DNA from: a candidate division TM6 bacterium GW2011_GWF2_28_16
Lineage (GTDB): Bacteria; Babelota; Babeliae; Babelales; UASB340
Length of the DNA: 64,000 bases
Assembly: GCA_000989185.1 (NCBI GenBank)
Contig: LBNX01000003.1
Coordinates: 33,704-97,703 of the forward strand
Direction: 5' to 3'
Of this stretch, positions 8,080-63,790 are shown one piece after another (position 1 is the stretch's first letter; each line of letters begins with the position of its first letter). The notes under the pieces were generated by a model. It saw only the letters and a list, made by a program, of their open reading frames with translations, searched no databases and was not told the origin of the DNA. Both the position numbers and the translations under genes were made by a program.

Positions 8080-8169
8080 AAATATTATTTTATCTGGTTT
8101 ACATATTGTTTTAATATGATAGAACTATAACATATTTTTAATTAATAGTGAATTTTGAAGGGTTTTTAT

Positions 8170-9516
8170 ATGAATTTTAGATTAAGAATGGCGATAATAA
8201 TTTTATTAGGATTAAGTGGTTTTTTGGGAATTAAGGCATATTCTCATTGGGATTCTTATCATGATCTTGAAACGGCAAAAAAAGCGGTTAATAATGGGGC
8301 TGATATAAATGCTATAGATCAATATGGGCAGACGCCGTTGATGTTTGCTGCAGAAGATGGACTTGCGGATGTAGCAGAATTTTTAATAAAAAATGGTGCG
8401 GATGTAAATTTTAAAAATAATGAAGGAGAAACATCCTTAATGTTGGCGTGCTATTGTATTGATGATTATAATTATGATGGTCGTGTTCGTATTGTTGAGA
8501 TGTTAATAAAGAATGAGGCCGATTTACATGCAAAAAATGATTCGGGAAGGACAGCGTTAAGGTATGCGGCTGTATCCAATTTTGAATTGGATATCATTAA
8601 ATTATTAGTTGAAAAAGGTGCATTGGTAAATGATCCTCAATCTACTGGGTCTGCATTAATAGATTCACTTTATAACTATGCGATATGGGATATTGAAGAA
8701 TTTAGTGACAAAGATTACCGAAATATTAAGTTTTTGATAAAAAATGGAGCAGATGTAAATGCTAGATTTAAGCCTGATGAAGAATTGGTTTCTGTTCTTG
8801 ATATTGCTATTACTACTGGAAGATTAGAGTTAGTCGACCTGTTAATAGGGTATGGAGCCACATCCGAAATTAAAGCTCCGGATGCATTTGGTTGGGCGGT
8901 TATTCGCAAAAATATGAGTGATATTGAGAAATTGTTAGATCGTGATGGTTGTGATTTAATAACTCAAGAGGATAATTTGGGAATTACTGCTTTTGGTTAT
9001 GCTATTTTGTATAATCATAAAAATATTGTTGAGTTGTTTTTGAAAAAAGATCCAAATATAGTAAAAAATAATGTGGATCTATATTCTGATATTCTTACTT
9101 GGGCTTCTAAGCGGGGATACAAAGATATTGTTGAATCTTTGGTAAAAATAGATAAGAGTTTAACTTCTGTTGATGGTAGTGATGAGGCATTAATAAATGC
9201 TATAAAATTTGGACGGATCGATGTAGCTAAATTTTTGATTGAAAATGGTATTAATGTAAATGCAAAAAATTATGATGAAAAAACGGCATTAATGATGGCA
9301 TTAGAAAATGGTTTGTTTGATATTGCTAAGTTACTTATAAAAAATGGAGCAGATGTAAATAGAAAAGTTGTACTATATGGAGAAGAAATTTCTGCTTTAG
9401 GTTATGCTATTAGTTGGGCCATGCATAATAAAAATTATGAAATGGTTCAATTGCTTATAGTTTCTGGAGCAGATACAAATGTAGAAGCGGCAAAATTCTT
9501 GGTAATAAAGAAATAG
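8170..9516 (+). CDS. Ankyrin-repeat protein with N-terminal membrane/signal segment (3' end apparently frameshifted)
   Basis: There are multiple GADVN...G.T.L..A repeats. I prefer the ATG at 8170, which follows GAAGGGTTTTTAT, to the track start at 8155. The last repeat continues in the -1 frame to 9551. Confidence 0.85.
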   Translation: MNFRLRMAIIILLGLSGFLGIKAYSHWDSYHDLETAKKAVNNGADINAIDQYGQTPLMFAAEDGLADVAEFLIKNGADVNFKNNEGETSLMLACYCIDDYNYDGRVRIVEMLIKNEADLHAKNDSGRTALRYAAVSNFELDIIKLLVEKGALVNDPQSTGSALIDSLYNYAIWDIEEFSDKDYRNIKFLIKNGADVNARFKPDEELVSVLDIAITTGRLELVDLLIGYGATSEIKAPDAFGWAVIRKNMSDIEKLLDRDGCDLITQEDNLGITAFGYAILYNHKNIVELFLKKDPNIVKNNVDLYSDILTWASKRGYKDIVESLVKIDKSLTSVDGSDEALINAIKFGRIDVAKFLIENGINVNAKNYDEKTALMMALENGLFDIAKLLIKNGADVNRKVVLYGEEISALGYAISWAMHNKNYEMVQLLIVSGADTNVEAAKFLVIKK

Positions 9517-10858: not shown

Positions 10859-10918
10859 TTTGACATTAAAATTTTGCTCGCGCTGTCTAGAAAAATATAG
10901 CTTTAAAATTACTAAAGT

Positions 10919-10990
10919 GAGCCTGCGCCTGTCCACCGTAGCTTTAGCGAAGGTTGGATGAGCGGGCGTATTTGAGGTAGCCCTGCGGCG
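10919..10990. repeat. GC-rich repeat, class A
   Basis: GAGCCTGCGCCTGTCCACCGTAGCTTTAGCGAAGGTTGGATGAGCGGGCGTATTTGAGGTAGCCCTGCGGCG. It is near-identical over the first ~45 nt to 45167-45282. Confidence 0.85.
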
Positions 10991-24359: not shown

Positions 24360-24381
24360 TAATAAAATTTAATTATAAAAA

Positions 24382-24404
24382 AATCCCGGATAAAACTTCC
24401 GGGA
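24382..24404. terminator. Bidirectional hairpin terminator
   Basis: ATCCCGGA-taaaact-TCCGGGAT is flanked by an A-run and a T-run. The stem sequence matches the arms of the B-short repeat. Confidence 0.65.
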
Positions 24405-24442
24405 TTTTTTTTGTTTAAATAAATTTTTTAAAAATATTTTAT

Positions 24443-27221: not shown

Positions 27222-28574
27222 ATGTTTTTTCGTATTATCAAGTTTTTTTGGCCAGATTTATCTAATGAAGAGATAAAAAAATATGGAATGCTTTCCATGG
27301 CTTTCTTTTTCATTATTGGAGCATACTGGTTATTGCGCCCATTAAAAGATGGTTTCTTTTTTAGTGCAGTAGGTGGAAAATATCAACCAACAGCAAAAAT
27401 GCTTTCAGTTCTTATTGTTGGTATTTTGGTAATGGTTTATTCAAAGCTTGTAGATATAGTCGAGAAACATAAATTATTTTATATTTTGGGTTCTATATAT
27501 ACAGTTTTGTTTGCAATAGTTGCTTACGTAGTAAACTTCCCAGTTGAAGGACCGGGCGCTTTAAACCCATCAATCTTAAGATTTTTTGGTTGGGCTTCTT
27601 ACTTTATTATAGAAAGTTTTGGTTCTATAGTAGTTGCACTTTTTTGGTCTTTTACTGCTAGCGTTTCTGATGCTAAATCTGCAAAAAAAGGTTATTCATT
27701 AGTTATAGCCGGTGCTCAAATTGGCGCAATATTTGGACCCTTTATGGCAACATATGCAAAAAGCTGGGGTTTAATGCCGTTATTTTTAATTGGTACAGTT
27801 TCTATAATGCTTATGATGTTTATCATAAACCGTTTTATGGCTGTAACTCCAAAAGAACAATTAGAAATAAATAAACAAGAAGTTAAATCTGAATCTGCTC
27901 CAAAAACAGGCTTTTTAGAAGGTTTAAAACTTTTATTAACAAGACCATATTTATTAGGAATATTTGCAGTAGTTACAATTTATGAAGTTGTTGGAACTAT
28001 TGTTGACTATCAAATGAAGATGCAAGCACAAGCATTGCCTCAGTATGCATCAAGAGAATCTTTAACAGCATTCTTGGGTGTATTTGGTATGTCTGCAAAT
28101 GCATTAGCATTCTTTATGGCTCTTTTAGGTACAGGTTATATGATGAAAAAACTTGGCCTAAGATTTTGTTTATTAACATTCCCTATTGTTTTGGGTCTTG
28201 CTGTTGCTGGTTTATATGCTGCATATACTTGGGGTCATTTTAATCCAATGATGCTATTGTGGGCAACCTTTGGTGTTATGATGATTGCAAAAGGTTTAAG
28301 CTATGCATTAAATAATCCTGCAAAAGAAATGATGTATATTCCAACAAGTAAAGATGTAAAATTCAAATCTAAAGGTTGGATTGATATGTTTGGCTCAAGA
28401 AGCTCAAAAGCTGTTGGTGCAGCATTTACCGATTCATTAAAAGGTAATGCATATAATTTAATGGCTTATGGAACAATTTTATCTTTAGGCTTTATTGGTG
28501 TTTGGATTGTTGTTGCATTCTTTGTAAGCAATAAATTTGAACGTCTTACAGCAGAAGGCAAAATTGTTGAATAA
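27222..28574 (+). CDS. NTT/Tlc-family nucleotide (ATP/ADP) antiporter, paralog 1
   Basis: 450 aa and polytopic. The blocks LLRPLKDGFFF, ESFGSIVVALFWSF...SAKKGY and NNPAKEMMYIP...KFKSKGWIDMFG match Chlamydia/Rickettsia Npt/Tlc proteins as I remember them. Confidence 0.75.
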   Translation: MFFRIIKFFWPDLSNEEIKKYGMLSMAFFFIIGAYWLLRPLKDGFFFSAVGGKYQPTAKMLSVLIVGILVMVYSKLVDIVEKHKLFYILGSIYTVLFAIVAYVVNFPVEGPGALNPSILRFFGWASYFIIESFGSIVVALFWSFTASVSDAKSAKKGYSLVIAGAQIGAIFGPFMATYAKSWGLMPLFLIGTVSIMLMMFIINRFMAVTPKEQLEINKQEVKSESAPKTGFLEGLKLLLTRPYLLGIFAVVTIYEVVGTIVDYQMKMQAQALPQYASRESLTAFLGVFGMSANALAFFMALLGTGYMMKKLGLRFCLLTFPIVLGLAVAGLYAAYTWGHFNPMMLLWATFGVMMIAKGLSYALNNPAKEMMYIPTSKDVKFKSKGWIDMFGSRSSKAVGAAFTDSLKGNAYNLMAYGTILSLGFIGVWIVVAFFVSNKFERLTAEGKIVE

Positions 28575-28728: not shown

Positions 28729-30075
28729 ATGTTTACACGATTTTTTAAATTTTTCGGTAAAGATTTAAGTAGTAAAGAAGTTGAAAAATTTAGTCTTCTT
28801 GCTTTAGCATTTTTTTTTACAGTTGGTGGCTACTGGCTTTTAAAAACATTAAAAGACGGTTTCTTTTTTAATGTCGTTGGTGGTCAATTTCAGCCTAGAG
28901 CAAAAATGCTCTCACTTGTTGTTATTTCTATATTAGTACTTGTTTATAGTAAACTTGTAGATATATTTCATAGACATCAATTATTTTATATTTTTGGAAC
29001 TTTTTTTGCAGTTTTTTTTGCACTTGTATCAATATCTTTGGCTTTACCTGTGCATAGTTTTGGCCCGGCTTATTTGCAATATATAAAAATTTTAGGATGG
29101 GCTTCGTACGTTATGGTCGAAAGCTTTGGATCTATTATGATTGCATTATTCTGGTCTTTTGTAACAAGTATTACAGATACAGAATCTGCAAAGCGTGGTT
29201 ATTTTTTAATTGTTGCAGGCGCTCAACTTGGTGCAATATTTGGTCCCTTTTTATCTTGGAATGCTAAATTTTTTGGATTACCAATATTGTTCGCTATGGC
29301 AACAGCATGCATATTAGCTTTAATTTTAGTCATAAAAAAATTTATTTCAGTTACTCCACAAGAAGAACTTATTGGAGGTAAACAAGATATAAGACCTCAG
29401 GAAAAGACAGGCTTTTGGCAAGGTTTAAAACTTATTACAACCAAACCATATTTATTTGGGATTTTATTATTAGTTATTTTTTATGAAACAGTTACAACTA
29501 TAGTTGATTATCAAATGAAAATTCTAGCACAAGCATTACCTGAGTATGCAACTAAAGAAGCTTTGACATCTTTTATGGGTATATTTGGTATGGCGACCAA
29601 TGGTTTATCTTTATTAATGGCTCTTTTTGGTACAGGTTATTTAATTAAAAAATTTGGGTTACGTTTTTGTTTGTTGGCATTTCCGGTTGCTGTAGGGTTT
29701 GCTATAGCTGCATTATATGGAGTTATTAAATTAGATTTTTTAACTACTCAAAGTATGTTATGGGCAACTTTTACAGTTGTAATTATAGCCAAAGGCTTAA
29801 GTTATGCTCTTAATAATCCTGCAAAAGAGGTTATGTATATTCCAACAAGTAGAGACGCTAAATTTAAAGCTAAAGGTTGGATAGATATGTTTGGTGCCAG
29901 AGGTGCTAAAGCAATAGGTTCTGGGTTTAATGAATATTTAATTAGAACTCCAGATGTTTTATTATATCTTGGTTCTATTTTGTCTTTGGGTTTAATAGGT
30001 ATATGGATTATAGTGGCTCTTCTTGTGGGTAATAAATTTAATAGATTAATAAAAAACAATCAGATAGTCGGATAA
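28729..30075 (+). CDS. NTT/Tlc-family nucleotide antiporter, paralog 2
   Basis: 448 aa, colinear with paralog 1 (LLKTLKDGFFF, ESFGSIMIALFWSF...SAKRGY, NNPAKEVMYIP...KFKAKGWIDMFG). Confidence 0.75.
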   Translation: MFTRFFKFFGKDLSSKEVEKFSLLALAFFFTVGGYWLLKTLKDGFFFNVVGGQFQPRAKMLSLVVISILVLVYSKLVDIFHRHQLFYIFGTFFAVFFALVSISLALPVHSFGPAYLQYIKILGWASYVMVESFGSIMIALFWSFVTSITDTESAKRGYFLIVAGAQLGAIFGPFLSWNAKFFGLPILFAMATACILALILVIKKFISVTPQEELIGGKQDIRPQEKTGFWQGLKLITTKPYLFGILLLVIFYETVTTIVDYQMKILAQALPEYATKEALTSFMGIFGMATNGLSLLMALFGTGYLIKKFGLRFCLLAFPVAVGFAIAALYGVIKLDFLTTQSMLWATFTVVIIAKGLSYALNNPAKEVMYIPTSRDAKFKAKGWIDMFGARGAKAIGSGFNEYLIRTPDVLLYLGSILSLGLIGIWIIVALLVGNKFNRLIKNNQIVG

Positions 30076-39242: not shown

Positions 39243-40256
39243 ATGCAAAAAACGGTTTTAGTGTTGGGCGGTGCTGGTTATATAGGTTCAAATACTGCTT
39301 ATTTATTATCACAAAAAGATTATAACGTAATAATTTTAGATAAATTAATTTATAACCAAAAATTTGATCATAATTTTGCCAAATTAATTATTGGTGATTT
39401 TGCAGATGAAAAAATACTTGAAAATATTTTTAAAACTTACAAAATAGACGCTGTTTTACATTTTGCAGCTTTGATAGAAGTTGGTCTTTCTGTTATAAAT
39501 CCAGTGCAATTTTATAATAATAACGTGATTAAAACTTTAAAATTTTTAGATATTATGCTTTCTTATAATATTAAAAAATTTATATTTTCTTCTAGTTGTG
39601 CCGTATATGGTAACCCTGTACAAATACCAATACCAGAAGAACATAAATATAATCCTATAAGCCCGTATGGTAAAAATAAATTAATTATAGAATATGCACT
39701 TCAAGATTATGCGCATGCGTATAATTTAAATTATATTTCTTTAAGATATTTTAATGCAGCGGGAACTGGCGTCATCCCGGACACTGATCCGGGATCTAAA
39801 CCAAAAATATTTTTAGGTGAACAACATATACCGGAAACACATATAATACCGTTATTATTGCGTGCTATAAAAAATAATAAAATATTTACAATTTTTGGTG
39901 ATAATTATAATACTCAAGATGGAACCTGCGTACGTGATTATATACATGTGCAAGATTTAGCACATGCACATTATTTGGCGCTTGAATATTTAATTGGTAA
40001 CAATAATAACATTAATAATTCGCAAGTCTTTAATTTAGGTACAGGTTTGGGGTATTCTGTAAAAGATTTAATATTATGTGCACAAAAAATAACAGGTAAA
40101 AAAGCAAATATACAAATTTGTCCAAGACGCGAAGGTGACGTAGATACACTTGTTGCAGATAATAAAAAAATAAAGAATACTTTAGGGTGGAGTCCAGAGT
40201 ATTCAAGTTTAGAAAATATAATGCGTAGTGCATGGGAATGGGAAAATAGGAGTTAA
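39243..40256 (+). CDS. galE: UDP-glucose 4-epimerase
   Basis: I prefer the ATG at 39243. It has GGAGYIGS and YxxxK (SPYGKNK). It carries a 27-nt GC-rich palindrome in-frame. Confidence 0.9.
   Translation: MQKTVLVLGGAGYIGSNTAYLLSQKDYNVIILDKLIYNQKFDHNFAKLIIGDFADEKILENIFKTYKIDAVLHFAALIEVGLSVINPVQFYNNNVIKTLKFLDIMLSYNIKKFIFSSSCAVYGNPVQIPIPEEHKYNPISPYGKNKLIIEYALQDYAHAYNLNYISLRYFNAAGTGVIPDTDPGSKPKIFLGEQHIPETHIIPLLLRAIKNNKIFTIFGDNYNTQDGTCVRDYIHVQDLAHAHYLALEYLIGNNNNINNSQVFNLGTGLGYSVKDLILCAQKITGKKANIQICPRREGDVDTLVADNKKIKNTLGWSPEYSSLENIMRSAWEWENRS
39771..39797. repeat. B-short GC-rich palindromic repeat inserted in-frame in galE
   Basis: GTCATCCCGG-acactga-TCCGGGATCT codes VIPDTDPGS. Compare 43001-43030. 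Confidence 0.75.
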
Positions 40257-41623: not shown

Positions 41624-43708
41624 TTATAATTTTCTTTTAAACTGTTTTTCAATAAAATCTTTATTGAGTATCCAGGTTGTTGGCCTGCCGTGTGGGCAGG
41701 TCAACAAATTTTCTGTTTTATATAAGTTATTAACAATTTCTTGCATTTGCGTTTCAGTTAAAATATCGCCTGCTTTAACTGCAGATTTGCAAGCAATTTG
41801 TGCATGAATTTTGTCGTTTAATTTTTTTCTAAAAAGTTCTTGATCTAGATTTTCAAATTCTCTAATAAATTCTAAAATTTCAAAAATTAATTCTTTTAAA
41901 GATTGATTTTGAATTCCTGCAGGGCTAGATTTTATGGCTAGTTGGCTTTTGCCAAAAACTTCGATATTTATTCCCTGATTAGCTAAAAACTCTTGAGCTA
42001 ATTTTATTTGTTCAAGTTCAAGATTATTTAAATTTATTATTTCTGGAAACATTAATTTGATTCCAGATTTAGTTTCAAAATTTTTAGTTATATTATCGTA
42101 AATTATTCTTTCGTGTGCTGCATGCTGGTCGATAATAATTAAATTTGTTTCGCTCTGAGCGATAATATACGTTGTTAAAAATTGGCCTATTATTTTAAAG
42201 GATCTAGATCCCCAGCCTACGCCCTTCGTGGCTTCCAACTTCGCCAAGGCTTCGATGGACACGTCGGCGGGCAGGCCGGTTTCTCTGGTAGGGATAACAA
42301 ACTCTGTTTGAGTTGGATTTATATTGCTGGATCCTGAATCAAGTTCAGGATGACAAACGGGGTGGGCAATATAACTATTATATTTAAAAGTACGCGACTG
42401 AGATCCCCAGCCTTCGCCCTTCGTGGCTTCCAACTTCGCCAAGGCTTCGATGGACACGTCGGCGGGCAGGCCGGTTTCTCTGGCCGGGATGACAGCGCTA
42501 AGAGTTGTGTTGAGCAAGCCAGAAGACATACTAGGGCTGACTATATCTGTGTTAAGGTTGGTTTCTCTGGTCGGGATGACATTGCCAATAAAACTGCGAA
42601 CGTTTGCATCCAGAGTTTCTTTAATAATTCTTTGCAATAAATTTGTTACAGTATGTGGCTTTAAAAAGCGAACTTCTTCTTTTTTGGGATGAACATTAAT
42701 ATCAACAAAATTACTTGGTGTGTTTATAAAAATAAAACTAGCCGGGAATTTTGCCGGAGGTAAAACTCCAGTGTAGCCTTTAAAGAGTGCCTTATTTAAT
42801 TCTGTGTCTTTTATATAACGATTATTAACAAAAAAGAATATTTGGTGTTTGCCATAACGCCATAGGTTGTGATTACTGGTAAGACCAGAGATTGAGATTG
42901 ATGTATTGTTTTTATTACTAGATCCTGATCCCTCGATACATTTTTCTTGCGAAAAACACTCGGGATGAACGGGTTTAGGAGTACAAGTTGTGGGTTGGTT
43001 GTCATCCCGGGCTTGACCCGGGATCTCTCCATTATTTATCTCTAGCATGCTTTCGCTTAAGCTATGCCCCCAGAGTTGGGCAACGCGATCTTTAATGTTT
43101 TGTGTAGCAGGCGCATTAAGTATAATTTTGTCGTCTTTAAAAAGTTTAAAATTAATATTAATATTGCTTAAACAAAATGCATTAAAAATATTTAATATCT
43201 GGTTAAATTCAGTTTCGTCTTGTTTTAAAAATTTTTTACGAACAGGTAAATTAAAAAAAAGATCATATATTTGTAAATCTGTTCCTATTGGACATGAAAC
43301 ACTTTCTTGAGAGTGTAATTTATTTTCGTAATAAATTATTTTGGTACCAACTTCTTGATTGTTAGTTTTAGTTATTAAAGTTACTTTGCTAACAGCACTA
43401 ATGCTTGCAAGAGCTTCACCTCTAAAACCAAAAGATGCTATATTTTCTAGGTCATTTATATTTTCTATTTTACTTGTTGCGTGCTTTTCAAAACACAATA
43501 AAGCATCTTGTTCGCCCATGCCAGAGCCGTTATCTACAAGTCTAATTAAACTCTTGCCAGAATCTTTTATATATAAATTTATTTGAGTGCTATTGGCATC
43601 TATAGAATTTTCTATTATTTCTTTAACTATATTTGCTGGACGCTCGACAACTTCGCCAGCTGCAATTTTTGCAGCCTGCTCAGGTGCTAATATTTTTATC
43701 TTGTTCAT
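41624..43708 (-). CDS. mutL: DNA mismatch repair protein MutL (linker expanded by repeat insertions)
   Basis: It has the GHKL motifs (ERPANIVKEIIENSIDA, DNGSGM, GFRGEAL) and the C-terminal domain (IIGQFLTTYII...DQHAAHERI). The ORF is intact at 694 aa. Confidence 0.92.
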   Translation of the reverse strand: MNKIKILAPEQAAKIAAGEVVERPANIVKEIIENSIDANSTQINLYIKDSGKSLIRLVDNGSGMGEQDALLCFEKHATSKIENINDLENIASFGFRGEALASISAVSKVTLITKTNNQEVGTKIIYYENKLHSQESVSCPIGTDLQIYDLFFNLPVRKKFLKQDETEFNQILNIFNAFCLSNININFKLFKDDKIILNAPATQNIKDRVAQLWGHSLSESMLEINNGEIPGQARDDNQPTTCTPKPVHPECFSQEKCIEGSGSSNKNNTSISISGLTSNHNLWRYGKHQIFFFVNNRYIKDTELNKALFKGYTGVLPPAKFPASFIFINTPSNFVDINVHPKKEEVRFLKPHTVTNLLQRIIKETLDANVRSFIGNVIPTRETNLNTDIVSPSMSSGLLNTTLSAVIPARETGLPADVSIEALAKLEATKGEGWGSQSRTFKYNSYIAHPVCHPELDSGSSNINPTQTEFVIPTRETGLPADVSIEALAKLEATKGVGWGSRSFKIIGQFLTTYIIAQSETNLIIIDQHAAHERIIYDNITKNFETKSGIKLMFPEIINLNNLELEQIKLAQEFLANQGINIEVFGKSQLAIKSSPAGIQNQSLKELIFEILEFIREFENLDQELFRKKLNDKIHAQIACKSAVKAGDILTETQMQEIVNNLYKTENLLTCPHGRPTTWILNKDFIEKQFKRKL
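42207..42298. repeat. 92-nt GC-rich repeat unit, copy 1, in-frame in mutL
   Basis: gatccccagcctacgcccttcgtggcttCCAACttcgccaaggcttcGATGGacacgtcggcgggcaggccggtttctctggtagggataac. It translates as IPTRETGLPADVSIEALAKLEATKGVGWGS. Confidence 0.9.
42326..42362. repeat. B-type hairpin repeat, in-frame in mutL
   Basis: gctgGATCCTGAAtcaagTTCAGGATgacaaacgggg codes HPELDSGSS. Confidence 0.8.
42402..42493. repeat. 92-nt GC-rich repeat unit, copy 2, in-frame in mutL
   Basis: It differs from 42207-42298 at 4 of 92 positions and lies 195 nt away. It translates as IPARETGLPADVSIEALAKLEATKGEGWGS. Confidence 0.9.
42560..42580. repeat. Solo terminal fragment of the 92-nt unit, in mutL
   Basis: ggtttctctggtcgggatgac matches the end of the 92-nt units and codes VIPTRET. 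Confidence 0.7.
42921..42973. repeat. Class C GC-rich repeat, in-frame in mutL
   Basis: GATCCTGATCCCTCGATACAT-ttttcttgcgaaaa-ACACTCGGGATGAACGGG has arms matching 10301-10367. Confidence 0.8.
43001..43030. repeat. B-short palindromic repeat, in-frame in mutL
   Basis: GTCATCCCGG-gcttgac-CCGGGATCTCTCC codes GEIPGQARDD. Confidence 0.8.
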
Positions 43709-45007: not shown

Positions 45008-45103
45008 GACGTTGCCTTTTAAAAAGTAAAATTAATTAAAAAACGTATAAGAGTGCGATACTAGTATTTATTTTTTTAAATGGCAAGTTGTTTTTTATTT
45101 TTA

Positions 45104-45140
45104 TTACTGGATGCTGAAATAAATTCAGCATGACAAAGGG
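45104..45140. repeat. B-type hairpin repeat
   Basis: ttactgGATGCTGAAataaaTTCAGCATgacaaaggg. It is the reverse complement of the 51576 copy apart from one compensated stem pair. Confidence 0.85.
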
Positions 45141-45166
45141 TTTCGTAATAACTGTAAAATTTTTTT

Positions 45167-45282
45167 GAGCCTGCGCCTGTCCGCCGTAGCTTTAGCGAAG
45201 GCTGGACAAGCAGGCGAATTTATGGTAGCCCAGTGGCAGCCTGCCCGCCATAGCCTTGGCGACGGCTAGGTAAGTCCTGGGC
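45167..45282. repeat. Class A GC-rich repeat (long form, two M cores)
   Basis: GAGCCTGCGCCTGTCCGCCGTAGCTTTAGCGAAGGCTGGACAAGCAGGCG...GGTAGCCCAGTGGCAGCCTGCCCGCCATAGCCTTGGCGACGGCTAGG... Confidence 0.85.
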
Positions 45283-49476: not shown

Positions 49477-49743
49477 TTCCAATATTTATCTTATATTTAT
49501 CTTATTAAATAGGGCTAAAAATGCAACCGGTATATTATTATTTGTCAATTTTTTGTATTAAAAATTTTAAAATAGATTCTGGAAGCAATTTTTTGTTTAG
49601 TCTCTGCCATAGCGTATATACAATATAAGGAGGGCATTTGAAAATTTATTTTTAAAGTGCTAATATTTAGGCCTATATGGGATGTTATTTAGGGGTTTTT
49701 AGGGCCATTTTTAATTATGGCAATTTTAATTGGGGGGCTTTTT

Positions 49744-51513
49744 GTGAAAAACAGTTTACAAAAAATTCTAACATGTTCGTTATTTTCTTTATCTATCGTT
49801 TTTTCTGGTCATGCATTAGTTGCTGAGCACAAACAACCAAATCCAGATTTAGACTATTTTAAGTCTAGAAAAATAGATCTTAATTTAGGTGTTATAAATA
49901 TTCGTGTAAATTTTGAACTAGGTCATGATAAATTGTTTAAGGGCTTTAATGAAGAAGGTATTAACCTTACGTTTGGTCAAGGATTAAAGCAAAAGCAAAC
50001 TGATTCAAAACAAGGTTCGTTAGAAGATAGAATAGGTTCATTAAATCTTGGAGATTTTACTAAAGTTTTAGCAGTTAATGTTGCAAAAAATGAAATAAAA
50101 AAATATCTCGAAAATAATAAAATAGATGAATTATTAAATGGATTACCACCATATGCTAAATGGTTTATATCAAGAATTATTAAAAATGGTAAATTAACGC
50201 CAACAGATGTATTTATTTTAAAAACTTATATGTTGTATGTTACAGATTTGGGTGTTGGTTACGAAAATTTAAAAACTGTAGAGTTTTTAATTCTTGTTAT
50301 TAAGCTTATAAATTCAAGTGTAAATTTTGATATTAATAAGATTAATAGTTTAATTGAAAAATTATCAGAATATTTTGAACCTGAATTTATTAGTTTTGTT
50401 CGTGATTTAGTAAATGATTTTAAAACAGGTTTTAAAAATATAGATTTTGAAAATATTAAACTAAAAAACAGTGAAAATAAGCAACAAGTTTTGGGCTATG
50501 CTTTTGATAATAATGATGCAGCGCAGGCTTTTTATGATCGTGTTAAATCTGTAAGTAATTTAAATACAGAAGTATTCAAAAGTTTAGCTAAAAGCTTTAC
50601 ACAAAGTTATGATGCTAATACTAAGCATGATATTTTTGATAAAGTTGATACTCAAAACTTAGAAAATCAAATTGTATTGGTTAAAGATTTAGATCCAAAT
50701 CTTGTTAAGGATAAAGCTAATGGTGTTTATCTTGATTCAAGTGATGACAAAAATACTGTTTATTGTGTAAATAATAATAAAGAAAATAATTTAGATTATG
50801 CTCTTTTAACTAAATCTGTTGTTGCAGCTATTTATCATGCTATAAGTGAATATAAAGAAATAAGTGGCTTTGAATTTAATGATATTATTAAATCTTTTAA
50901 TTCTAAAGAGCTTGAAAATAATTTAGGAACTTTAAATAAAGAGAAGGCTAAATTACAAAATAAACTTGATATTATTAATAAAAATATAGCTTATAATCAA
51001 AAAAATATAGAGCATGAACTTAGTACTCCTTGGTTTGTTAGAACATTTAATAGAATGTTTAAAAATAGTACGTTAAATAGTGATAAAGTTAGTTTACTTG
51101 ATTATGAAAAAGTAAAACAAGAAACAGAACAAGAATTAACTATAATAAGCAACAAGCTTGATAAGTTAAATATTATTGTAACAGGACAATATTCGCAAAA
51201 TTTTCTAAATACTGTTAAAGATAAAACTTTAATAGAAACATTTAAAACTATATTCTCTTTTGATAATAATTTTACAAAAATATTAAAAGATATTTTAACT
51301 GATAATAATTATAAAATAGTTAGAGAAAATTTGTTTAATCGTTTGGCTGCAGTATCTGGTAACTTTGAACTTGTTAAAGAATATTGGCCAACAATTGAAT
51401 ATGTTTTAGAAAATAAATTCCCAGAATTAAAAGAAAACATTTCTACTTTTAGTAAAAAACTAGAAGAAGAACCAGGTTTGGAAACATCTTTATTGAAGTT
51501 ATCACTTAAATAA
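49744..51513 (+). CDS. Hypothetical secreted coiled-coil protein
   Basis: I prefer the GTG at 49744, which follows GGGGGGCTTTTT. It has the signal-like KNSLQKILTCSLFSLSIVFSGHA. I recognise no domain. Confidence 0.55.
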   Translation: MKNSLQKILTCSLFSLSIVFSGHALVAEHKQPNPDLDYFKSRKIDLNLGVINIRVNFELGHDKLFKGFNEEGINLTFGQGLKQKQTDSKQGSLEDRIGSLNLGDFTKVLAVNVAKNEIKKYLENNKIDELLNGLPPYAKWFISRIIKNGKLTPTDVFILKTYMLYVTDLGVGYENLKTVEFLILVIKLINSSVNFDINKINSLIEKLSEYFEPEFISFVRDLVNDFKTGFKNIDFENIKLKNSENKQQVLGYAFDNNDAAQAFYDRVKSVSNLNTEVFKSLAKSFTQSYDANTKHDIFDKVDTQNLENQIVLVKDLDPNLVKDKANGVYLDSSDDKNTVYCVNNNKENNLDYALLTKSVVAAIYHAISEYKEISGFEFNDIIKSFNSKELENNLGTLNKEKAKLQNKLDIINKNIAYNQKNIEHELSTPWFVRTFNRMFKNSTLNSDKVSLLDYEKVKQETEQELTIISNKLDKLNIIVTGQYSQNFLNTVKDKTLIETFKTIFSFDNNFTKILKDILTDNNYKIVRENLFNRLAAVSGNFELVKEYWPTIEYVLENKFPELKENISTFSKKLEEEPGLETSLLKLSLK

Positions 51514-51551
51514 AAGACGCCTAAAAATTTGGGGGATAGCTGGGATTTATA

Positions 51552-51573
51552 GGGCTGCGATTTATCGCAGCCC
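51552..51573 (+). terminator. Hairpin terminator
   Basis: GGGCTGCGA-ttta-TCGCAGCCC followed by TTTT. Confidence 0.65.
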
Positions 51574-51575
51574 TT

Positions 51576-51608
51576 TTGTCATCCTGAATTTATTTCAGGA
51601 TCCAGTAA
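51576..51608. repeat. B-type hairpin repeat
   Basis: ttgtcATCCTGAAtttatTTCAGGATccagtaa. Confidence 0.85.
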
Positions 51609-51677
51609 TTATTTTGTATTTAAACATAAATATTTTCATGACAAATATTTGAAATATGCTAGAATTTAACTCAGTTC

Positions 51678-51751
51678 TGGGATGTCGTCTAGTGGTAGGA
51701 CTGCGGATTCTGGATCCGTTAACAGAGGTTCGAATCCTCTCGTCCCAGCCA
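51678..51751 (+). tRNA. tRNA-Gln (CTG)
   Basis: A cloverleaf can be drawn by hand. The acceptor is TGGGATG/CGTCCCA, the anticodon loop is TTCTGGA, the T-arm is AGAGGTTCGAATCCTCT and the CCA is encoded. Confidence 0.88.
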
Positions 51752-52061
51752 AATTTTTGTATTAAATGTGTGGTGTTTTTTACAAAATTCTAGCAGTATT
51801 AGAGAATATTTAATCAAATATATTTCATCTTTTATAATAATTTAAATAACTTTTGACTATGTGTCCTTTTATCTATTATATGTTGCCAGAAATATATTCC
51901 AGAATTAAGATTGTTTCAAATTGTTATAATGTGCAATAGTTTGATTAATAAATTGTTTCAAGTTGTGGCCTTTGATGAATATGTCTAATTAAGGCATCAT
52001 TAAATTGTATAAATGGAATAGTTTTAGATTTTATATTTAAGATTTATTTGGGGGTTATATT

Positions 52062-53048
52062 ATGAATATTCGTAAATTTACTTTTTTTTACATTATCGCG
52101 TCAATATTTCTTTTTACAAATATATGTAGAATAGATGCAACAGGATATATTACAGAAATAATAAATAATACCGATGAAGAAATAATAATTTCTAGTCCTT
52201 CATTGTATACTCAAAAATTAGAAGGGAATATTGTTAAAGCTATATCTTTAAATACAGGCAAAGAACTTCAACCAAAATTGAATCAATTAAGTTTATTTCC
52301 TAGATCTTTAAATAAAATTAAGGGTTTTGGAATACCTATAATACCTTTAGGGGTTGATAACAACAATAGTTTTAAAATACCTCATCATTATGCTAATTTA
52401 AATTTTAAACCTTTATTAACGTTAAATATAGATTTATTTATTGCTTTTTGTCAAAAAGGGAATTTATTGGAGATTTTTGGTTGTGATGGAATAAAAGAAA
52501 TTTTTTTATCAAACAAAAAAATATTTTCAGGAACTAATAATTCAAGTTTTAGAATCGTTACAAACGAAGTTATTTCAAATGAAGCTAAATATTCAATTGA
52601 AATTAAAAAAATATCTAGTTTCCCTTCTTTATTTTATAATATTTTACAATATGGGCCTTATCATAAGCCCAATTTATTCAAAAATACACTTCAAATTATT
52701 ATTAAACCAGACGAATCAGTTGTTTGTGATACAAAACCTATACAGCCTAAGGCTTTCATAGGATCATATTTTGCAGGTTCAGAAAATTGTGGAATTATCA
52801 AGGTGAGCATAGAATTTGATGCAATAGGAACGGAATTATATTTTAAAAACTTCACTAAATTTATGGAGACTAAATTATTAAATATAGCTAAAATTAGAAC
52901 AATTAATAAGGACGGACATATATATTTATGTTTAGACATATATGATAAGATAACTCGCGAATTTATACAATTATTACTTGATGAAGCAAATAATAATACT
53001 GAATTACTTTCTGGTAATTTTAGGCCATTGTCTATTCTTAAGAATTAA
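52062..53048 (+). CDS. Orphan secreted protein
   Basis: 328-aa ORF that follows GGGGGTTATATT. It has the signal-like MNIRKFTFFYIIASIFLFTNICRIDA. Confidence 0.55.
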   Translation: MNIRKFTFFYIIASIFLFTNICRIDATGYITEIINNTDEEIIISSPSLYTQKLEGNIVKAISLNTGKELQPKLNQLSLFPRSLNKIKGFGIPIIPLGVDNNNSFKIPHHYANLNFKPLLTLNIDLFIAFCQKGNLLEIFGCDGIKEIFLSNKKIFSGTNNSSFRIVTNEVISNEAKYSIEIKKISSFPSLFYNILQYGPYHKPNLFKNTLQIIIKPDESVVCDTKPIQPKAFIGSYFAGSENCGIIKVSIEFDAIGTELYFKNFTKFMETKLLNIAKIRTINKDGHIYLCLDIYDKITREFIQLLLDEANNNTELLSGNFRPLSILKN

Positions 53049-53064
53049 TACAATTAAAATAAAA

Positions 53065-53106
53065 AATCCTAGATTTATCAAAAATATTAATTGGTAGTCT
53101 AGGATT
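53065..53106 (+). terminator. Hairpin terminator
   Basis: AATCCTAGA...(24 nt)...TCTAGGATT followed by a T-run. Confidence 0.55.
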
Positions 53107-53175
53107 TTTTATTTTTAATTTGTCAGATATATAAATAATTATTTTTAGTTAAAGTGATTAAATGTAAATTTTGTT

Positions 53176-53223
53176 GTAAACTTTTCCAGTCGAAAAGTTC
53201 GAAGTGCATTGAGAGTGGGTAGC
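53176..53223 (+). repeat. Imperfect direct repeat, copy a (hairpin plus GC-rich tail)
   Basis: gtAAACTTTTCcagtcGAAAAGTTcgaagtgcattgagagtgggtagc. Compare 54366-54412. Confidence 0.7.
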
Positions 53224-53460
53224 TAGCTCCACCAAGGCTGTGGCTGGTCAAGGTTAAAAAGTATGATGGTTTTAAAAAAAATATTAATAGAAAAGAATAC
53301 GAAGATGTTTGTCGAAGCTTAAAGAGTGTAAGAGGACAAAATGAGTGTAAATTTATTAGATTTGAAAAATATATTAGTATTAAATTGTAAAAAAATATTT
53401 ATGATATAATGCGTGCATACAGTTATTTTAGTATTTTTAATAAATAATTATGTGAAATAA

Positions 53461-54165
53461 ATGAATAACAAAAGTAGTATAAAAAAAACTTCTTATTTAC
53501 ATAAGCCATTTGGTGAAATATTTAATGAAATTGCAGTACTTTTAAAATATTTAAAAAATAGCTCAGATTTTGATAAGAGATGCCTAAATAATTTAATTTG
53601 TCACACAACTATTAGAATGCTTGAAGGAATTGTAAATATAATTATTGAATCTACGAAATTAAATGATAAATTAAAAAAAAATTTGGATAAGTTGTCACTA
53701 ATAGATAAATTTGACTTATTGCTCTTTTTGAAATCTGAAGAAAAGTTGAATCTAGGATATCATTTGGTGGGAGGAGTTATTGAATTAATAATTTATAGAA
53801 ATAATTCAATTCATCCCAAAGTCATTGAAACAGAAATAGAATTTTATGAAGAATCAGGTTGTGTTTACTTCAAACCTAAAAAATCATGGTCTTCTAATGA
53901 GAAAGAACTTGCCATAAAATTTTTAAAAAATGCATTTAAATTTTTAGATTATTATTTAATTGATTTGTGCAAATGCGATATAGACTTTTTATCAACACTA
54001 TTATTAGACACAGTAAAATATTCTGATACAGAATATGGAATTTTACAATTAAAACAGTTATCAGAGTCTAAAAAGTTTATAGAATTAGAACTTAAAATAA
54101 ATATTGAATTTTTATTATTTTTAGATAGGCCTTTAATAAAAGAGTGTTTAAATTTAAAAATTTAA
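53461..54165 (+). CDS. Orphan cytoplasmic protein
   Basis: 234-aa ORF with no signal peptide and no motif I recognise. It is bracketed by the 47-nt direct repeats. Confidence 0.5.
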   Translation: MNNKSSIKKTSYLHKPFGEIFNEIAVLLKYLKNSSDFDKRCLNNLICHTTIRMLEGIVNIIIESTKLNDKLKKNLDKLSLIDKFDLLLFLKSEEKLNLGYHLVGGVIELIIYRNNSIHPKVIETEIEFYEESGCVYFKPKKSWSSNEKELAIKFLKNAFKFLDYYLIDLCKCDIDFLSTLLLDTVKYSDTEYGILQLKQLSESKKFIELELKINIEFLLFLDRPLIKECLNLKI

Positions 54166-54365
54166 TTATAATTATATTTGATAGAAACGTTTCAATTCTT
54201 TAAATTAAAGGGTAGAGATGTAGCTTAAAAATGGAATTTGGACTTGCCATTTAGATAGTTCATTAAACTTTTTTCAAAATTTATATAAATAGTATGGAAT
54301 AAATTTAAAAAATGACATCTCATTACTAATAGTAGGTAAATAGTGGTTAAGGTAATTTTTTTTAT

Positions 54366-54412
54366 GCAAACTTTTTCAGTCAAAAGTTTGAAGTGAGTTA
54401 AGGTTGGGCAGC
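54366..54412 (+). repeat. Imperfect direct repeat, copy b
   Basis: gcAAACTTTTtcagtcAAAAGTTTgaagtgagttaaggttgggcagc. The stem is retained with different bases. Confidence 0.7.
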
Positions 54413-54583
54413 CAAATTTTACCTAATTCATATCTACAATATAATAAAATTTCTACCTGTAATCTTTTATTCTCTCTGTAAATAAAATAATTTTAATATT
54501 TAATATATCGATTCAGTCTGCATTTAAGCATGTTTGGCGTTTGTTTTATTATTTAAAAATGCGAAAATATAGATGTGTAGGTT

Positions 54584-54609
54584 GTCACCTCGGGCTGTGA
54601 CCCGTGGTC
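54584..54609. repeat. Degenerate B-short repeat
   Basis: GTCACCTCGGGCTGTGACCCGTGGTC compared with GTCATCCCGGGCTTGACCCGGGATC (mutL copy). Confidence 0.5.
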
Positions 54610-54654
54610 TTAAATTAATAATATAAAAATTATGGCGGGGGCCTAGGGATTTTT

Positions 54655-55287
54655 ATGACAAATGTAAATTCAAAAAAGTTAATGTTTCCAGTTATATCTA
54701 TTGTTTCTGTTGCAGCTCTTTTATTAGCATCTGGTTGTGCTAAATACAGAGGACAAAATTTAGAAACATTGGCTTATCCATCTTCAGAAGCTAAAAAAGA
54801 ATCTGTGTTTATGGCATATAAACCATTTAATGCTTCTGATTGTAAAGTTTATTTAGATAGAGATGTTTTGGCTAAAGGTTATCAGCCGATTCAAGTTACA
54901 ATAGTAAATAATTCTAAAAAATATTTAGACTTCTCTTTAGATAGAATTAGTTTGCCATCTGTTCCAGCTAGAGAAATTGCTAGAAAGGTTCATACATCTA
55001 CAGCTGCTCGTGCTGGTGGGTATGGTGCAGCTTCGTTAGTTTTATGGCCATTTATTATACCAGCTATTGTTGATGGTAATAAATCTGCAAGAGCTAATGA
55101 TAGATTAGATGAAGATTTTAATAGAAAAGAATTAAAGACCCAAATTATAAGCCCATATCATTCTGTTAATGGTATTATATTTGTGCCAAGAGAAAGATTT
55201 AATCCAGATTTTAAGGTTACATTAGTAGAAGTAGAGAATAATAATAAAATAGAATTGGGCAGTACAAAGACTAGTTTTAATTTTTAA
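54655..55287 (+). CDS. Orphan probable lipoprotein
   Basis: 210 aa. The signal ends in LLLASGC. The ORF follows CTAGGGATTTTT. Confidence 0.6.
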   Translation: MTNVNSKKLMFPVISIVSVAALLLASGCAKYRGQNLETLAYPSSEAKKESVFMAYKPFNASDCKVYLDRDVLAKGYQPIQVTIVNNSKKYLDFSLDRISLPSVPAREIARKVHTSTAARAGGYGAASLVLWPFIIPAIVDGNKSARANDRLDEDFNRKELKTQIISPYHSVNGIIFVPRERFNPDFKVTLVEVENNNKIELGSTKTSFNF

Positions 55288-55332
55288 GTTTTAATTTAAA
55301 TTTGAATAATATATTTAAAAGTGGAGGCTTTT

Positions 55333-56121
55333 ATGAAAAAATATGTTTTTGGTGCAGTAGCACTTAGTTTGGCTATGGCGTATTCTTGTGCAATAGCTGG
55401 AAATACAAAAGTTGAATCACCTTTTGGTGATATTCAGTTTGGCTTGGTTGTAGAAAAGTCACAAGATTTACAAGAACAAGATATAGATTTAAATCAAAAA
55501 GATTTAGATCAAATAAAAGGTGCTTTGGGTTACATAATTCAGGATTTAAAAGAGCTTAAAGAAAAGCAACCTAATCTTGGTAAAGATGAAACTGTAAATT
55601 TAATACAAAATATTGTAGAAAACAGAAGAGTGATAAATTCTGAAAATAAGCCGGGTTTTGTTAAACGATACTTTTTAAAGTTTGATAAAGCTTTAGATTA
55701 TATGTTAACAGTAAAAGGTTTTATTAAGACGCAGATAATCTTAAGCCCTATTTATATTACAATATTGTACTTATTCGGGCCAGAGATGCTTAATGGGTTT
55801 ATAGAGACCGTTGTTGGTTATTCTTCTAATGCCGCTGCTAAGATTACAGATGCGATTATTGATTCTATAGAAAAAAATAAAGATAAAATTATGCCTATGA
55901 TAGGTAAATCAGCAAGAATATATGGAGAAATGGCACAAAGAGTTTCTTCTAATCAAGAAGTTGGTAAAAATGTTGGAATTTGGAATAATTGGGATTTGAA
56001 AAAAGCTGGGACTTATGTTGCTAATGGAATAAAGTGGGTTATTCCTCTTTTTATAGGTGAATTAATTAAGGCTAAAACAGGAGCTGCGTTTAAGACAGCT
56101 GATATTTTAAATAAAAAATAA
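55333..56121 (+). CDS. Orphan secreted/membrane protein
   Basis: The ATG at 55333 follows GGAGGCTTTT. It has the signal MKKYVFGAVALSLAMAYSCAIA and an internal hydrophobic segment. Confidence 0.55.
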   Translation: MKKYVFGAVALSLAMAYSCAIAGNTKVESPFGDIQFGLVVEKSQDLQEQDIDLNQKDLDQIKGALGYIIQDLKELKEKQPNLGKDETVNLIQNIVENRRVINSENKPGFVKRYFLKFDKALDYMLTVKGFIKTQIILSPIYITILYLFGPEMLNGFIETVVGYSSNAAAKITDAIIDSIEKNKDKIMPMIGKSARIYGEMAQRVSSNQEVGKNVGIWNNWDLKKAGTYVANGIKWVIPLFIGELIKAKTGAAFKTADILNKK

Positions 56122-59173: not shown

Positions 59174-59192
59174 AAAAAATTAACTTGCATTT

Positions 59193-59244
59193 GAGCCTGC
59201 TCAAGCAGGCGGCTTTGAGGTAGCCCAGTGCGTGTGCGCTGGGC
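59193..59244. repeat. Class A GC-rich repeat (short form)
   Basis: GAGCCTGCTCAAGCAGGCGGCTTTGAGGTAGCCCAGTGCGTGTGCGCTGGGC. Confidence 0.8.
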
Positions 59245-59277
59245 TAATTTGTTTTGTATTAAAGGGCCTATATTTTT

Positions 59278-61267: not shown

Positions 61268-61382
61268 AAAATTCTCCTTTAAATACAAAAAGACTTAAAT
61301 TGCTTTTTTTAAACGTAAAAGTATGGTAACAAATTAAAGTGGTAAATTTCTAGAATATAATTTTTTATTATAAAAATTATTA

Positions 61383-61424
61383 GCGAAAGCTGGCTGCGCC
61401 ATACGAAGCCTTGGCGAAGTATGG
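61383..61424. repeat. CCA-anchored M-type hairpin at the 3' end of tRNA-Ser(TGA)
   Basis: On the + strand it reads gcgaaagctggctgcgCCATAC-gaagccttggcgaa-GTATGG. The last TGG is the complement of the tRNA CCA. Confidence 0.8.
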
Positions 61425-61513: not shown

Positions 61514-61610
61514 GGTTATTTTTTTAGGTTGAGATATATTTCAAAAGTTTTTGTGAAGATAAATTTGCATCTAGGCTAATAGATAGCGTTAATTTAATTT
61601 TAAATACCAA

Positions 61611-61688
61611 GTCCAGGTCCGCCGTCGCTCTGGCGAGCTTCCACCGACGCTAAAGCTATGGTGGACATGATGGCGTGACAGCCTACGC
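61611..61688. repeat. GC-rich repeat with M core between the two tRNA-Ser genes
   Basis: gtccaggtccgccgtcgctctggcgagcttCCACCgacgctaaagctatGGTGGacatgatggcgtgacagcctacgc. Confidence 0.75.
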
Positions 61689-61721
61689 AATAGTGCTAAC
61701 AAAGTTTTTATAATATAAATA

Positions 61722-61761
61722 CCGGTCCTGGCATGCCAGCCGTAGCTTTAGCGTAGGCTGG
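61722..61761. repeat. CCA-anchored M-type hairpin at the 3' end of tRNA-Ser(GCT)
   Basis: ccggtcctggcatgCCAGCC-gtagctttagcgta-GGCTGG overlaps the tRNA CCA complement. Confidence 0.8.
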
Positions 61762-61850
61762 TGGAGAGAGAGGGATTCGAACCCTCGATCCCGGTTTCCC
61801 AGGATACTTACTTAGCAGGCAAGCGCTTTCGACCACTCAGCCATCTCTCC
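61759..61850 (-). tRNA. tRNA-Ser (GCT)
   Basis: Reverse complement GGAGAGATGGCTGAGTGGTCGAAAGCGCTTGCCTGCTAAGTAAG...GAGGGTTCGAATCCCTCTCTCTCCACCA. Confidence 0.9.
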
Positions 61851-63647: not shown

Positions 63648-63734
63648 GCCGAAGTGGCGAAATTGGTAGACGCGCGAGACTCAAAATCTCGAGGTGGCAA
63701 CACCGTGTCGGTTCGAGTCCGACCTTCGGCACCA
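63648..63734 (+). tRNA. tRNA-Leu (CAA)
   Basis: GCCGAAGTGGCGAAATTGGTAGACGCGCGAGACTCAAAATCTCG...long variable arm...GGTTCGAGTCCGACCTTCGGCACCA. Confidence 0.9.
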
Positions 63735-63776
63735 GCCGTCGCTCCTGCGGAGCTATGGCTGGCAGGCCAGGACTGG
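63732..63776. repeat. CCA-anchored M-type hairpin at the 3' end of tRNA-Leu
   Basis: CCAGCC-gtcgctcctgcggagctat-GGCTGG followed by caggccaggactgg. The first CCA is the tRNA CCA. Confidence 0.8.
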
Positions 63777-63790
63777 AAGTTTTAAAATTT

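Follow-up and report, generated by a model that had tools for sequence, protein, structure and literature searches.

The galE gene of the candidate division TM6 bacterium GW2011_GWF2_28_16 (Candidatus Babelota, or Dependentiae) carries a 30-nucleotide (nt) in-frame insertion with the form of a short GC-rich hairpin. This insert is very probably a single unit of the CGTC-tagged class of repetitive extragenic palindromes (REPs), the class that includes dRS3 of Neisseria and the Rickettsia palindromic elements (RPEs) RPE-4 and RPE-6, copied into galE of this TM6 lineage. We analysed a 64-kb stretch of the genome with a GC content of 28%, referred to below as the window, in which galE encodes a UDP-glucose 4-epimerase (Table 1). 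The translated open reading frame (ORF) is 100% identical to the protein recorded as UDP-glucose 4-epimerase of this same bacterium (P0001), and matches the solved structure 8wxk with E = 1e-97. An initial annotation of the window had described a palindrome at 39771-39797 on the forward strand that is translated as VIPDTDPGS within an intact galE frame. The sequence there, GTCATCCCGGACACTGATCCGGGATCT, is exactly as described, with perfectly paired arms, and the reading within a 337-residue ORF is confirmed. The annotation was also right that the insert is in frame, but its length is 30 nt, or ten codons, by codon alignment, rather than the 27 nt originally proposed.

Comparison with other epimerases identifies the galE hairpin as a lineage-specific insertion that was acquired after the split from the nearest sequenced relative. 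In an alignment with the solved GalE structures 8wxk, 2c20 and 4twr, each of the three shows a clean 10-residue gap facing the insert. The ten residues are likewise missing from all 32 of the closest Dependentiae GalE proteins (32/32), which read NAAGA-x-P-xxx-LGEQH where the window protein reads NAAG-TGVIPDTDPG-SKPKIF-LGEQH. The gap agrees with the earlier proposal that the insert sits between the YFN and PETH blocks, where other epimerases have only a short loop, and none of the aligned GalE proteins has a loop of the same length in the absence of the palindrome. The nearest relative, assembly GCA_030629005.1, encodes a GalE that is ~70% identical to that of the window, and the two genomes have the gene order hisS, galE, trkH, mutL, an lptC-like gene and bamA in common. 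At the codon level, the window reads GCA GCG GGA (ACT GGC GTC ATC CCG GAC ACT GAT CCG GGA) TCT AAA CCA AAA, with the additional codons in parentheses, and the relative reads GCG GCA GGT GCC GAT CCT AAA, so that the window has exactly 30 nt more. No CGTC-type hairpin was found in 21 kb of this syntenic relative, which also does without the window's mutL inserts. An identical 337-residue GalE that includes the insert occurs on five contigs from several sources, one of them an independent Logan assembly (SRR3309375).

The inserted unit has the layout ggCGTC, ATCCCGGA, cactga, TCCGGGAT, cta, in which an unpaired head is followed by a perfect stem (8/8 positions paired), a loop and a short unpaired tail. 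It could equally be placed at 39765-39794, a shift of 3 nt that arises from the near-repetition of CGGGAaCT (39760-39767) as CGGGAtCT (39790-39797) at the two edges. We delimit the insert at 39768-39797 because other copies of the family suggest a unit that starts with GG(Y) before the head and ends with GGATCT. Folded as single-stranded DNA the hairpin has an energy of -7.7 kcal/mol (z = -3.5), which 0 of 200 shuffled sequences equal, and its exact palindrome pattern is expected by chance only 0.01 times per window. The GC content of the insert is 63%, versus 27% in the remainder of galE. Four of the six reading frames of the unit are open, and GC-rich palindromes may survive in the genes of a compact AT-rich genome because stop codons are rare in them. 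Rfam at gathering thresholds detected tmRNA and six tRNAs in the window, with no match at the galE element.

Table 1. Coordinates of the galE insert, its parts, and related and other repeats in the 64-kb window.
Feature	Position	Strand	Details
galE (UDP-glucose 4-epimerase), host of the insert	39243..40256	+	337 aa, ORF intact
In-frame 30-nt insert, CGTC-type REP unit (very probable)	39768..39797	+	GGCGTCATCCCGGACACTGATCCGGGATCT; GVIPDTDPGS, residues 176-185
CGTC head, unpaired tag	39770..39773	+	agrees with the head defined in PMC3733652
Left arm ATCCCGGA, 8 bp, first bases AT	39774..39781	+	pairs with the right arm
Loop CACTGA, 6 nt	39782..39787	+	between the arms of the galE hairpin
Right arm TCCGGGAT	39788..39795	+	pairs with the left arm
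CGGGAACT, imperfect direct repeat of the element's 3' end CGGGATCT (39790-39797)	39760..39767	+	probably incidental
Family copy tGTC, ATCCCGGG, cttga, CCCGGGAT, ct	43000..43026	+	inside mutL, antisense to the gene; read EIPGQARDD
Family copy GTC, ATCCTGAA, cttga, TTCAGGAT	42331..42354	-	inside mutL, sense to the gene; read CHPELDSGS
Family copy GTC, ATGCTGAA, tttat, TTCAGCAT, ccag	45103..45137	-	intergenic
Family copy GTC, ATCCTGAA, tttat, TTCAGGAT, ccag	51578..51605	+	intergenic
Degenerate family copy GTC, ACCTCGGG, ctgtga, CCCGTGGT, ct	54584..54608	+	intergenic
~99-nt elements in mutL	42392-42502, 42204-42299, 42540-42581	-	start GTCATCCCGrCC, end GGGGATCT; termini and frame as in the short hairpin
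Second GC-rich repeat family	10918-10983, 45166-45231, 59192-59247, 61381-61416, 61605-61775, 63688-63780		two longest 88% identical over 66 nt

Six related hairpins, including that in galE, occur within the window, and a GTCA head and TC tail are invariant in 6/6. A general scan for GTC-headed, GC-containing hairpins found four family members, compared with 0.125 +/- 0.33 in Markov simulations, and the remaining two of the six are AT-richer and were found by other means. The galE copy has the head CGTC and the other five have TGTC. Its 6-nt loop exceeds the common CTTGA by one base; four of the other window copies have 5-nt loops of CTTGA or TTTAT, both of which are among the commonest types in a metagenome scan described below. 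The tail is CTA in galE and CTC, CTT or CCA in the window copies. The stems vary in a compensatory manner, as ATCCCGGA/TCCGGGAT, ATCCCGGG/CCCGGGAT, ATCCTGAA/TTCAGGAT and ATGCTGAA/TTCAGCAT. Over the six copies, both partners differ in five of the eight stem pairs, pairing is kept in 97.9% of cells, and 0 of 500 shuffles score as high. Half of the copies (3/6) are intragenic. The initial annotation had treated the galE hairpin as a short element with a second copy in mutL (43001-43026) and a degenerate one at 54584-54608. Both copies are real, but the element is not private to this genome and falls in a published superfamily. A further hairpin, AAATCCCGGAtaaaacttTCCGGGATTT at 24381-24407, lies between convergent genes with A and T runs on its flanks and has galE's 8-bp stem without a GTC head, and was not counted as a family member because that head is missing. 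By eye it looks like a bidirectional terminator, although a consensus terminator scan did not call it.

The superfamily in question is that of the CGTC-tagged REPs, described by Di Nocera, De Gregorio and Rocco (2013, BMC Genomics 14:522, PMC3733652). Each unit opens with a CGTC head that stays unpaired and takes the form TGTC in many cases, followed by a stem that spans 8-9 bp and begins with two positions of complementary A/T residues (PMC3733652). The loop measures 4 nt in family 1 and 5 nt in families 2-4, is drawn from few types and has other lengths in some species, and the short unpaired tail is mostly CCA (PMC3733652). They are mostly arranged as head-to-head dimers and are mainly extragenic, although intragenic in-frame copies are documented, many of them in replication and repair genes (PMC3733652). 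Neisseria dRS3 and Rickettsia conorii RPE-6 are equated there with CGTC-1, and RPE-4 with CGTC-4. Units are found in several phyla, five of which are listed, with Candidatus Babelota / Dependentiae / TM6 not among them; no dedicated transposase is known, and no REP-associated tyrosine transposase (RAYT) is reported to be flanked by CGTC units (PMC3733652). The galE unit resembles this class in its CGTC head and in its 8-bp stem opening with A-T and T-A, as well as in being part of a dispersed repeat, with six copies in 64 kb versus ~0.1 expected. It also has a short loop and a short unpaired tail, of which the loop deviates in length and the tail in sequence from the usual forms.

Copies with the same architecture occur in many other bacteria. 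A scan of one genome per species with the pattern GTCATCCCGG-N(3-9)-CCGGGATC gave at least 146 exact-terminus copies in at least 120 loci, where the evidence lies in the non-randomness of the positions that the pattern leaves free and not in raw copy number against chance. Among the copies listed, the bases just inside the arms are complementary in 95%, versus 25% by chance, which extends the stem to 8 bp. Immediately 5' of GTC, where the pattern sets no base, 61% have C and 34% have T, giving a CGTC or TGTC head, and the two bases after GGGATC are CA in 61%, giving a CCA tail. The first of these two bases is C in 70% and T in 26%, making the CT tail a common variant. A few loop types dominate (CGAAGG, CGAAAG, ACTTGAT, CGCAGG and GCTTGAC), whereas no type would be preferred by chance. 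The listed matches come from alpha-, beta- and gammaproteobacteria, Actinomycetota, Bacteroidota, Fibrobacter, Firmicutes, lineages of the candidate phyla radiation (CPR), and metagenome-assembled genomes (MAGs) of Rickettsiales (L055) and Coxiellaceae, and are mostly extragenic. The 25-nt core of the mutL copy in the window is identical to copies in Ramlibacter, Propionicimonas and others.

A second scan, of metagenomes with the AT-richer variant TGTCATCCTGAA-N(3-7)-TTCAGGATCC, gave at least 138 copies in at least 120 loci, and the GC content of the loci listed spans 26-69%, the median being 42%. Among the metagenome matches listed, 15 of 138 copies lie well within long open frames, and the Pfam hosts of in-frame copies are MnmG, RecG, PheT, class-I LysRS, UppP, a glycosyltransferase, MnmA, a RadA-like ATPase and YbeY. 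Several copies of the CCTGAA variant share the frame CHPEL[V/D]SGS with the window's mutL copy. In-frame CGTC REPs in housekeeping genes are a recurrent phenomenon that extends beyond this window. Inverted pairs are common among the listed copies of both scans; no TM6 record is among the genome-scan loci listed, and none of the metagenome loci listed overlaps the window. One metagenome locus, L136 (Ga0206858_1037), has seven exact CCTGAA-type hairpins in 14.8 kb, some of them bracketing genes, and belongs to a very REP-dense genome. Upstream of many CGTC hairpins in other bacteria (genome-scan loci L018, L023, L036, L041, L059, L063, L075, L084, L088), the head and part of the left arm (tGTCATCCCG) are directly repeated at a distance of 8-18 nt. 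The motif GTCATCC is found upstream in 13 of 135 copies, while far control segments have it in 3 of 270 cases and segments downstream in 2 of 135, and we know of no description of such a half-site.

The consequences of the insert for GalE were assessed from an AlphaFold2 model built with a homologue alignment (A1). The model has a mean predicted local distance difference test score (pLDDT) of 85 and a predicted template modelling score (pTM) of 0.88, and it superposes on solved GalE structures with template modelling (TM) scores of 0.86-0.89. Its sole segment with pLDDT below 50 comprises residues 176-187 and coincides with the insert, the mapping that the initial annotation had suggested. The GxxGxxG NAD motif, S116/S117, Y142 and K146 are invariant in the alignment, and we take the serine, tyrosine and lysine positions to be the catalytic Ser-Tyr-Lys set of short-chain dehydrogenases. 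GalE is predicted to be intact, with its epimerase fold and catalytic residues kept and an extra disordered loop of ten residues, and it is plausible from the model that the insert is neutral for the protein. Most likely, the insert has no function for the enzyme and is selfish DNA put up with as a surface loop.

The copy in galE would have arrived through a transposition-like event, with the catalysing enzyme acting in trans. Judging from the GTAG REPs and their RAYTs, the obvious candidate would be an HUH enzyme that recognises single-stranded hairpins. Selection would then keep those insertions that are a multiple of three in length, free of stop codons and situated in loops, as expected for an essential gene of a compact genome. 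Several observations count against a mobile REP unit that is harmless to its host enzyme. The 64-kb window has no transposase domain of any kind by Pfam in its ORFs, and a search for a mobilising gene found no recurrent family among 42 ORFs bracketed by inverted hairpins (240 loci, 1.55 Mb). The bracketed ORFs examined look like ordinary housekeeping genes, and this null result agrees with the published conclusion that CGTC REPs are without a dedicated transposase. The galE loop of 6 nt departs from the published 4-5 nt, a difference that bears on the subfamily and not the superfamily given that PMC3733652 allows deviating loops. Similarly, the tail is CTA versus the consensus CCA, and all of the window copies are singletons, with no head-to-head dimers, versus a class that consists mostly of such dimers. 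No insert-free allele of the same species is known, P0001 being the sole member of its 90%-identity cluster, and the ~70%-identical relative is thus the only bound on when the insertion took place. Finally, the asparagine of the YFN block and the segment ahead of PETH, between which the insert lies, presumably contribute to the UDP-sugar pocket, as in E. coli GalE.

Other origins of the palindrome can be weighed against the arrival of a REP unit from elsewhere. The hairpin could have formed locally and de novo if a template switch during replication produced an inverted copy of a CGGGAWCT already present in galE. The imperfect 8-nt direct repeat CGGGAaCT / CGGGAtCT that bounds the insert fits this proposal, in that the right arm may be partly ancestral. 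However, a template switch would not give the unpaired CGTC head, the CT tail or a loop that is one base from the pan-bacterial ACTTGAT type, all of which have counterparts among the other window copies and the copies of other phyla. The CGGGAWCT motif is also not enriched at other copies, where it occurs upstream in 6 of 135 compared with 17 of 270 control segments, counts that lead us to reject it as a general target-site duplication as well. Together these points make a local origin quite improbable. An artefact of assembly or sequencing has next to no probability: the sequence comes from a MAG, chimeric joins can arise at repeats and one independent contig breaks inside mutL, but the identical 337-residue protein is present on five contigs that include the independent assembly of SRR3309375, and the insert is in frame with flanks that are collinear with galE.

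Alternatively, a REP unit in galE could have been retained for a purpose. Exaptation as a nucleic-acid element would have the hairpin kept for a role in DNA or RNA, such as mRNA processing or stability, pausing or protein binding, as proposed for extragenic REPs. The perfect stem in a genome with a strong AT bias, the compensatory changes that keep stems across copies, and the same-stem hairpin with its A and T runs between the convergent genes at 24381-24407 are all in keeping with such a role. However, descent of the copies from several palindromic masters would lead to compensatory change as well, and the intragenic hosts are unrelated genes, the syntenic relative does without the hairpin, and the 24381 hairpin is not called as a terminator by the consensus scan. 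No observation calls for exaptation, and we regard it as improbable. It is very improbable that the ten residues are instead an adaptive protein loop kept for a changed GalE substrate range, oligomerisation or partner binding. The site after YFN and before PETH is near the substrate-binding region in sequence, but the loop is predicted to be disordered (pLDDT below 50) and is absent from all aligned homologues, and its peptide is the translation of a generic repeat, with similar peptides in unrelated proteins. Compared with these explanations, that of a REP unit copied into galE and tolerated there is by far the most probable.

The nearby mutL gene (41624-43708, reverse strand) carries at least five in-frame GC-rich repeat segments, especially at 42204-42581 and 42925-43030. 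They consist of two short CGTC hairpins and three longer elements, of which two are ~99 nt long and near-identical (98.8% over 83 nt) and one is degenerate. Relative to solved MutL structures, the window MutL has ~40 additional residues between positions 227 and 272; the repeats add these ~40 residues in the region of the N-terminal domain and more in the linker. The ~99-nt elements read VIPARETGLPADVSIEALAKLEATKGEGWGS and, in the frame that the galE unit uses, run from GTC ATC CCG to GGA TCT; they fold no better than shuffled sequences (z = -1.2). Either the short form arose from the ~99-nt element by internal deletion, or a hairpin became the ~99-nt element by taking up a nested insertion. 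One contig of an independent assembly (L124) stops within mutL, where the repeats cluster. The repeat load of mutL echoes the published bias of intragenic REPs to DNA repair genes.

Other repeats and genes of the region were also noted. A second GC-rich repeat family, unrelated to the hairpins and with motifs such as CCGTAGCTTTAGCGAAGG and GAAGCCTTGGCGAAG, mostly adjoins tmRNA or tRNA genes and lies in intergenic DNA. In another member of the Dependentiae, galE (L245 ~1618-1810, protein P0089) contains a different in-frame palindromic element at another site, which adds ~60 residues and has long terminal inverted repeats, CAGGGCGACCCTTCGAGACG ... CGTCTCGAAGGGTCGCCCTG, with no CGTC hairpin. Within this phylum, galE has been struck independently by another repeat class. 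Two tandem paralogous ORFs in the window (27222-28574 and 28729-30075) have 80-86% nucleotide identity over parts of their length, and the syntenic relative's gene at their position is a TLC ATP/ADP translocase (PF03219), a hallmark of energy parasites. The ORF at 8155-9516 encodes a 453-residue ankyrin-repeat protein, and many ORFs near it (5475, 6135, 9544, 11145, 22489, 49717-56121) have zero Pfam match.

The CGTC insert in galE is a clean yet ordinary instance of a known phenomenon. It provides a very clean pair of filled and empty sites in a well-understood enzyme, and is therefore a convenient test case both for the tolerance of a core enzyme to a repeat-encoded loop and for what moves CGTC REPs. 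For genome annotators, it illustrates that short GC-rich islands in the genes of AT-rich genomes are often repeat insertions and not sequencing errors or functional motifs. A bolder proposal, which we consider unlikely, is that CGTC hairpins remain active, pass between phyla and are moved by a single-strand DNA enzyme that has escaped recognition and is perhaps common to all hosts, and that they routinely seed new surface loops in core enzymes (GalE, MutL, RecG, MnmG and aminoacyl-tRNA synthetases) of compact AT-rich genomes such as those of Dependentiae and of AT-rich lineages in the metagenomes. Units of 25-27 nt are near-identical across genomes of 26 to 75% GC, and the frame CHPEL[V/D]SGS is reused in unrelated hosts. 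If true, CGTC hairpins would be a general source of new loops and no mere peculiarity of Rickettsia.

Several known systems resemble the galE insert to different degrees. GTAG REPs and REPINs are also short hairpins with an unpaired 5' tag, and the likely mechanistic analogy is a hairpin on single-stranded DNA that is recognised in trans. We rejected membership in the GTAG REP/REPIN-RAYT system because the head is CGTC and not GTAG and the window has no RAYT or IS200-like gene. MITEs, or miniature inverted-repeat transposable elements, were likewise rejected, as that class requires 70-300 bp, terminal inverted repeats of 15-30 bp and a target-site duplication, whereas the unit is 30 nt and its flank repeat is not recurrent. 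The GC clusters of yeast mitochondria are short GC-rich palindromes that spread in a very AT-rich genome, sometimes in coding frame, but they are organellar, unrelated in sequence and have another proposed origin. Neisseria dRS3 (ATTCCC-N8-GGGAAT) shares the architecture of head, AT-initiated stem and tail with the galE unit, while differing in that its units cluster in intergenic mosaic elements, a clustering not seen in the window. The dRS3 repeats are integration targets for phages and insertion sequence (IS) elements, and no such use was seen in the window.

A literature search for the raw sequence GTCATCCCGG returned primer lists alone, and no report of such palindromes was found for Dependentiae/TM6, though unrelated uses of 'TM6' swamped part of that search. 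CGTC REPs and RPE-type coding palindromes are known, and their occurrence in Dependentiae is new as far as we have found. In contrast to the CGTC class as a whole, which is mainly extragenic, half of the window copies are intragenic. A parallel is offered by the Rickettsia RPEs, GC-richer palindromes that likewise lie in frame within housekeeping genes and whose bearer is also an AT-rich bacterium that depends on a host and has a reduced genome. The RPEs are judged to be compatible with the fold and function of the host protein, and the host ORFs here, galE and mutL, are intact. Elements of the RPE-1 type are ~100-150 bp long and add 30-50 residues, versus a single 30-nt unit and ten residues in galE, and the phylum differs; the specific link to RPE-4 and RPE-6 is the class equation made in PMC3733652 and no other. 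The insert in galE extends Rickettsia-style coding palindromes to Dependentiae/TM6, another host-dependent lineage with reduced genomes.

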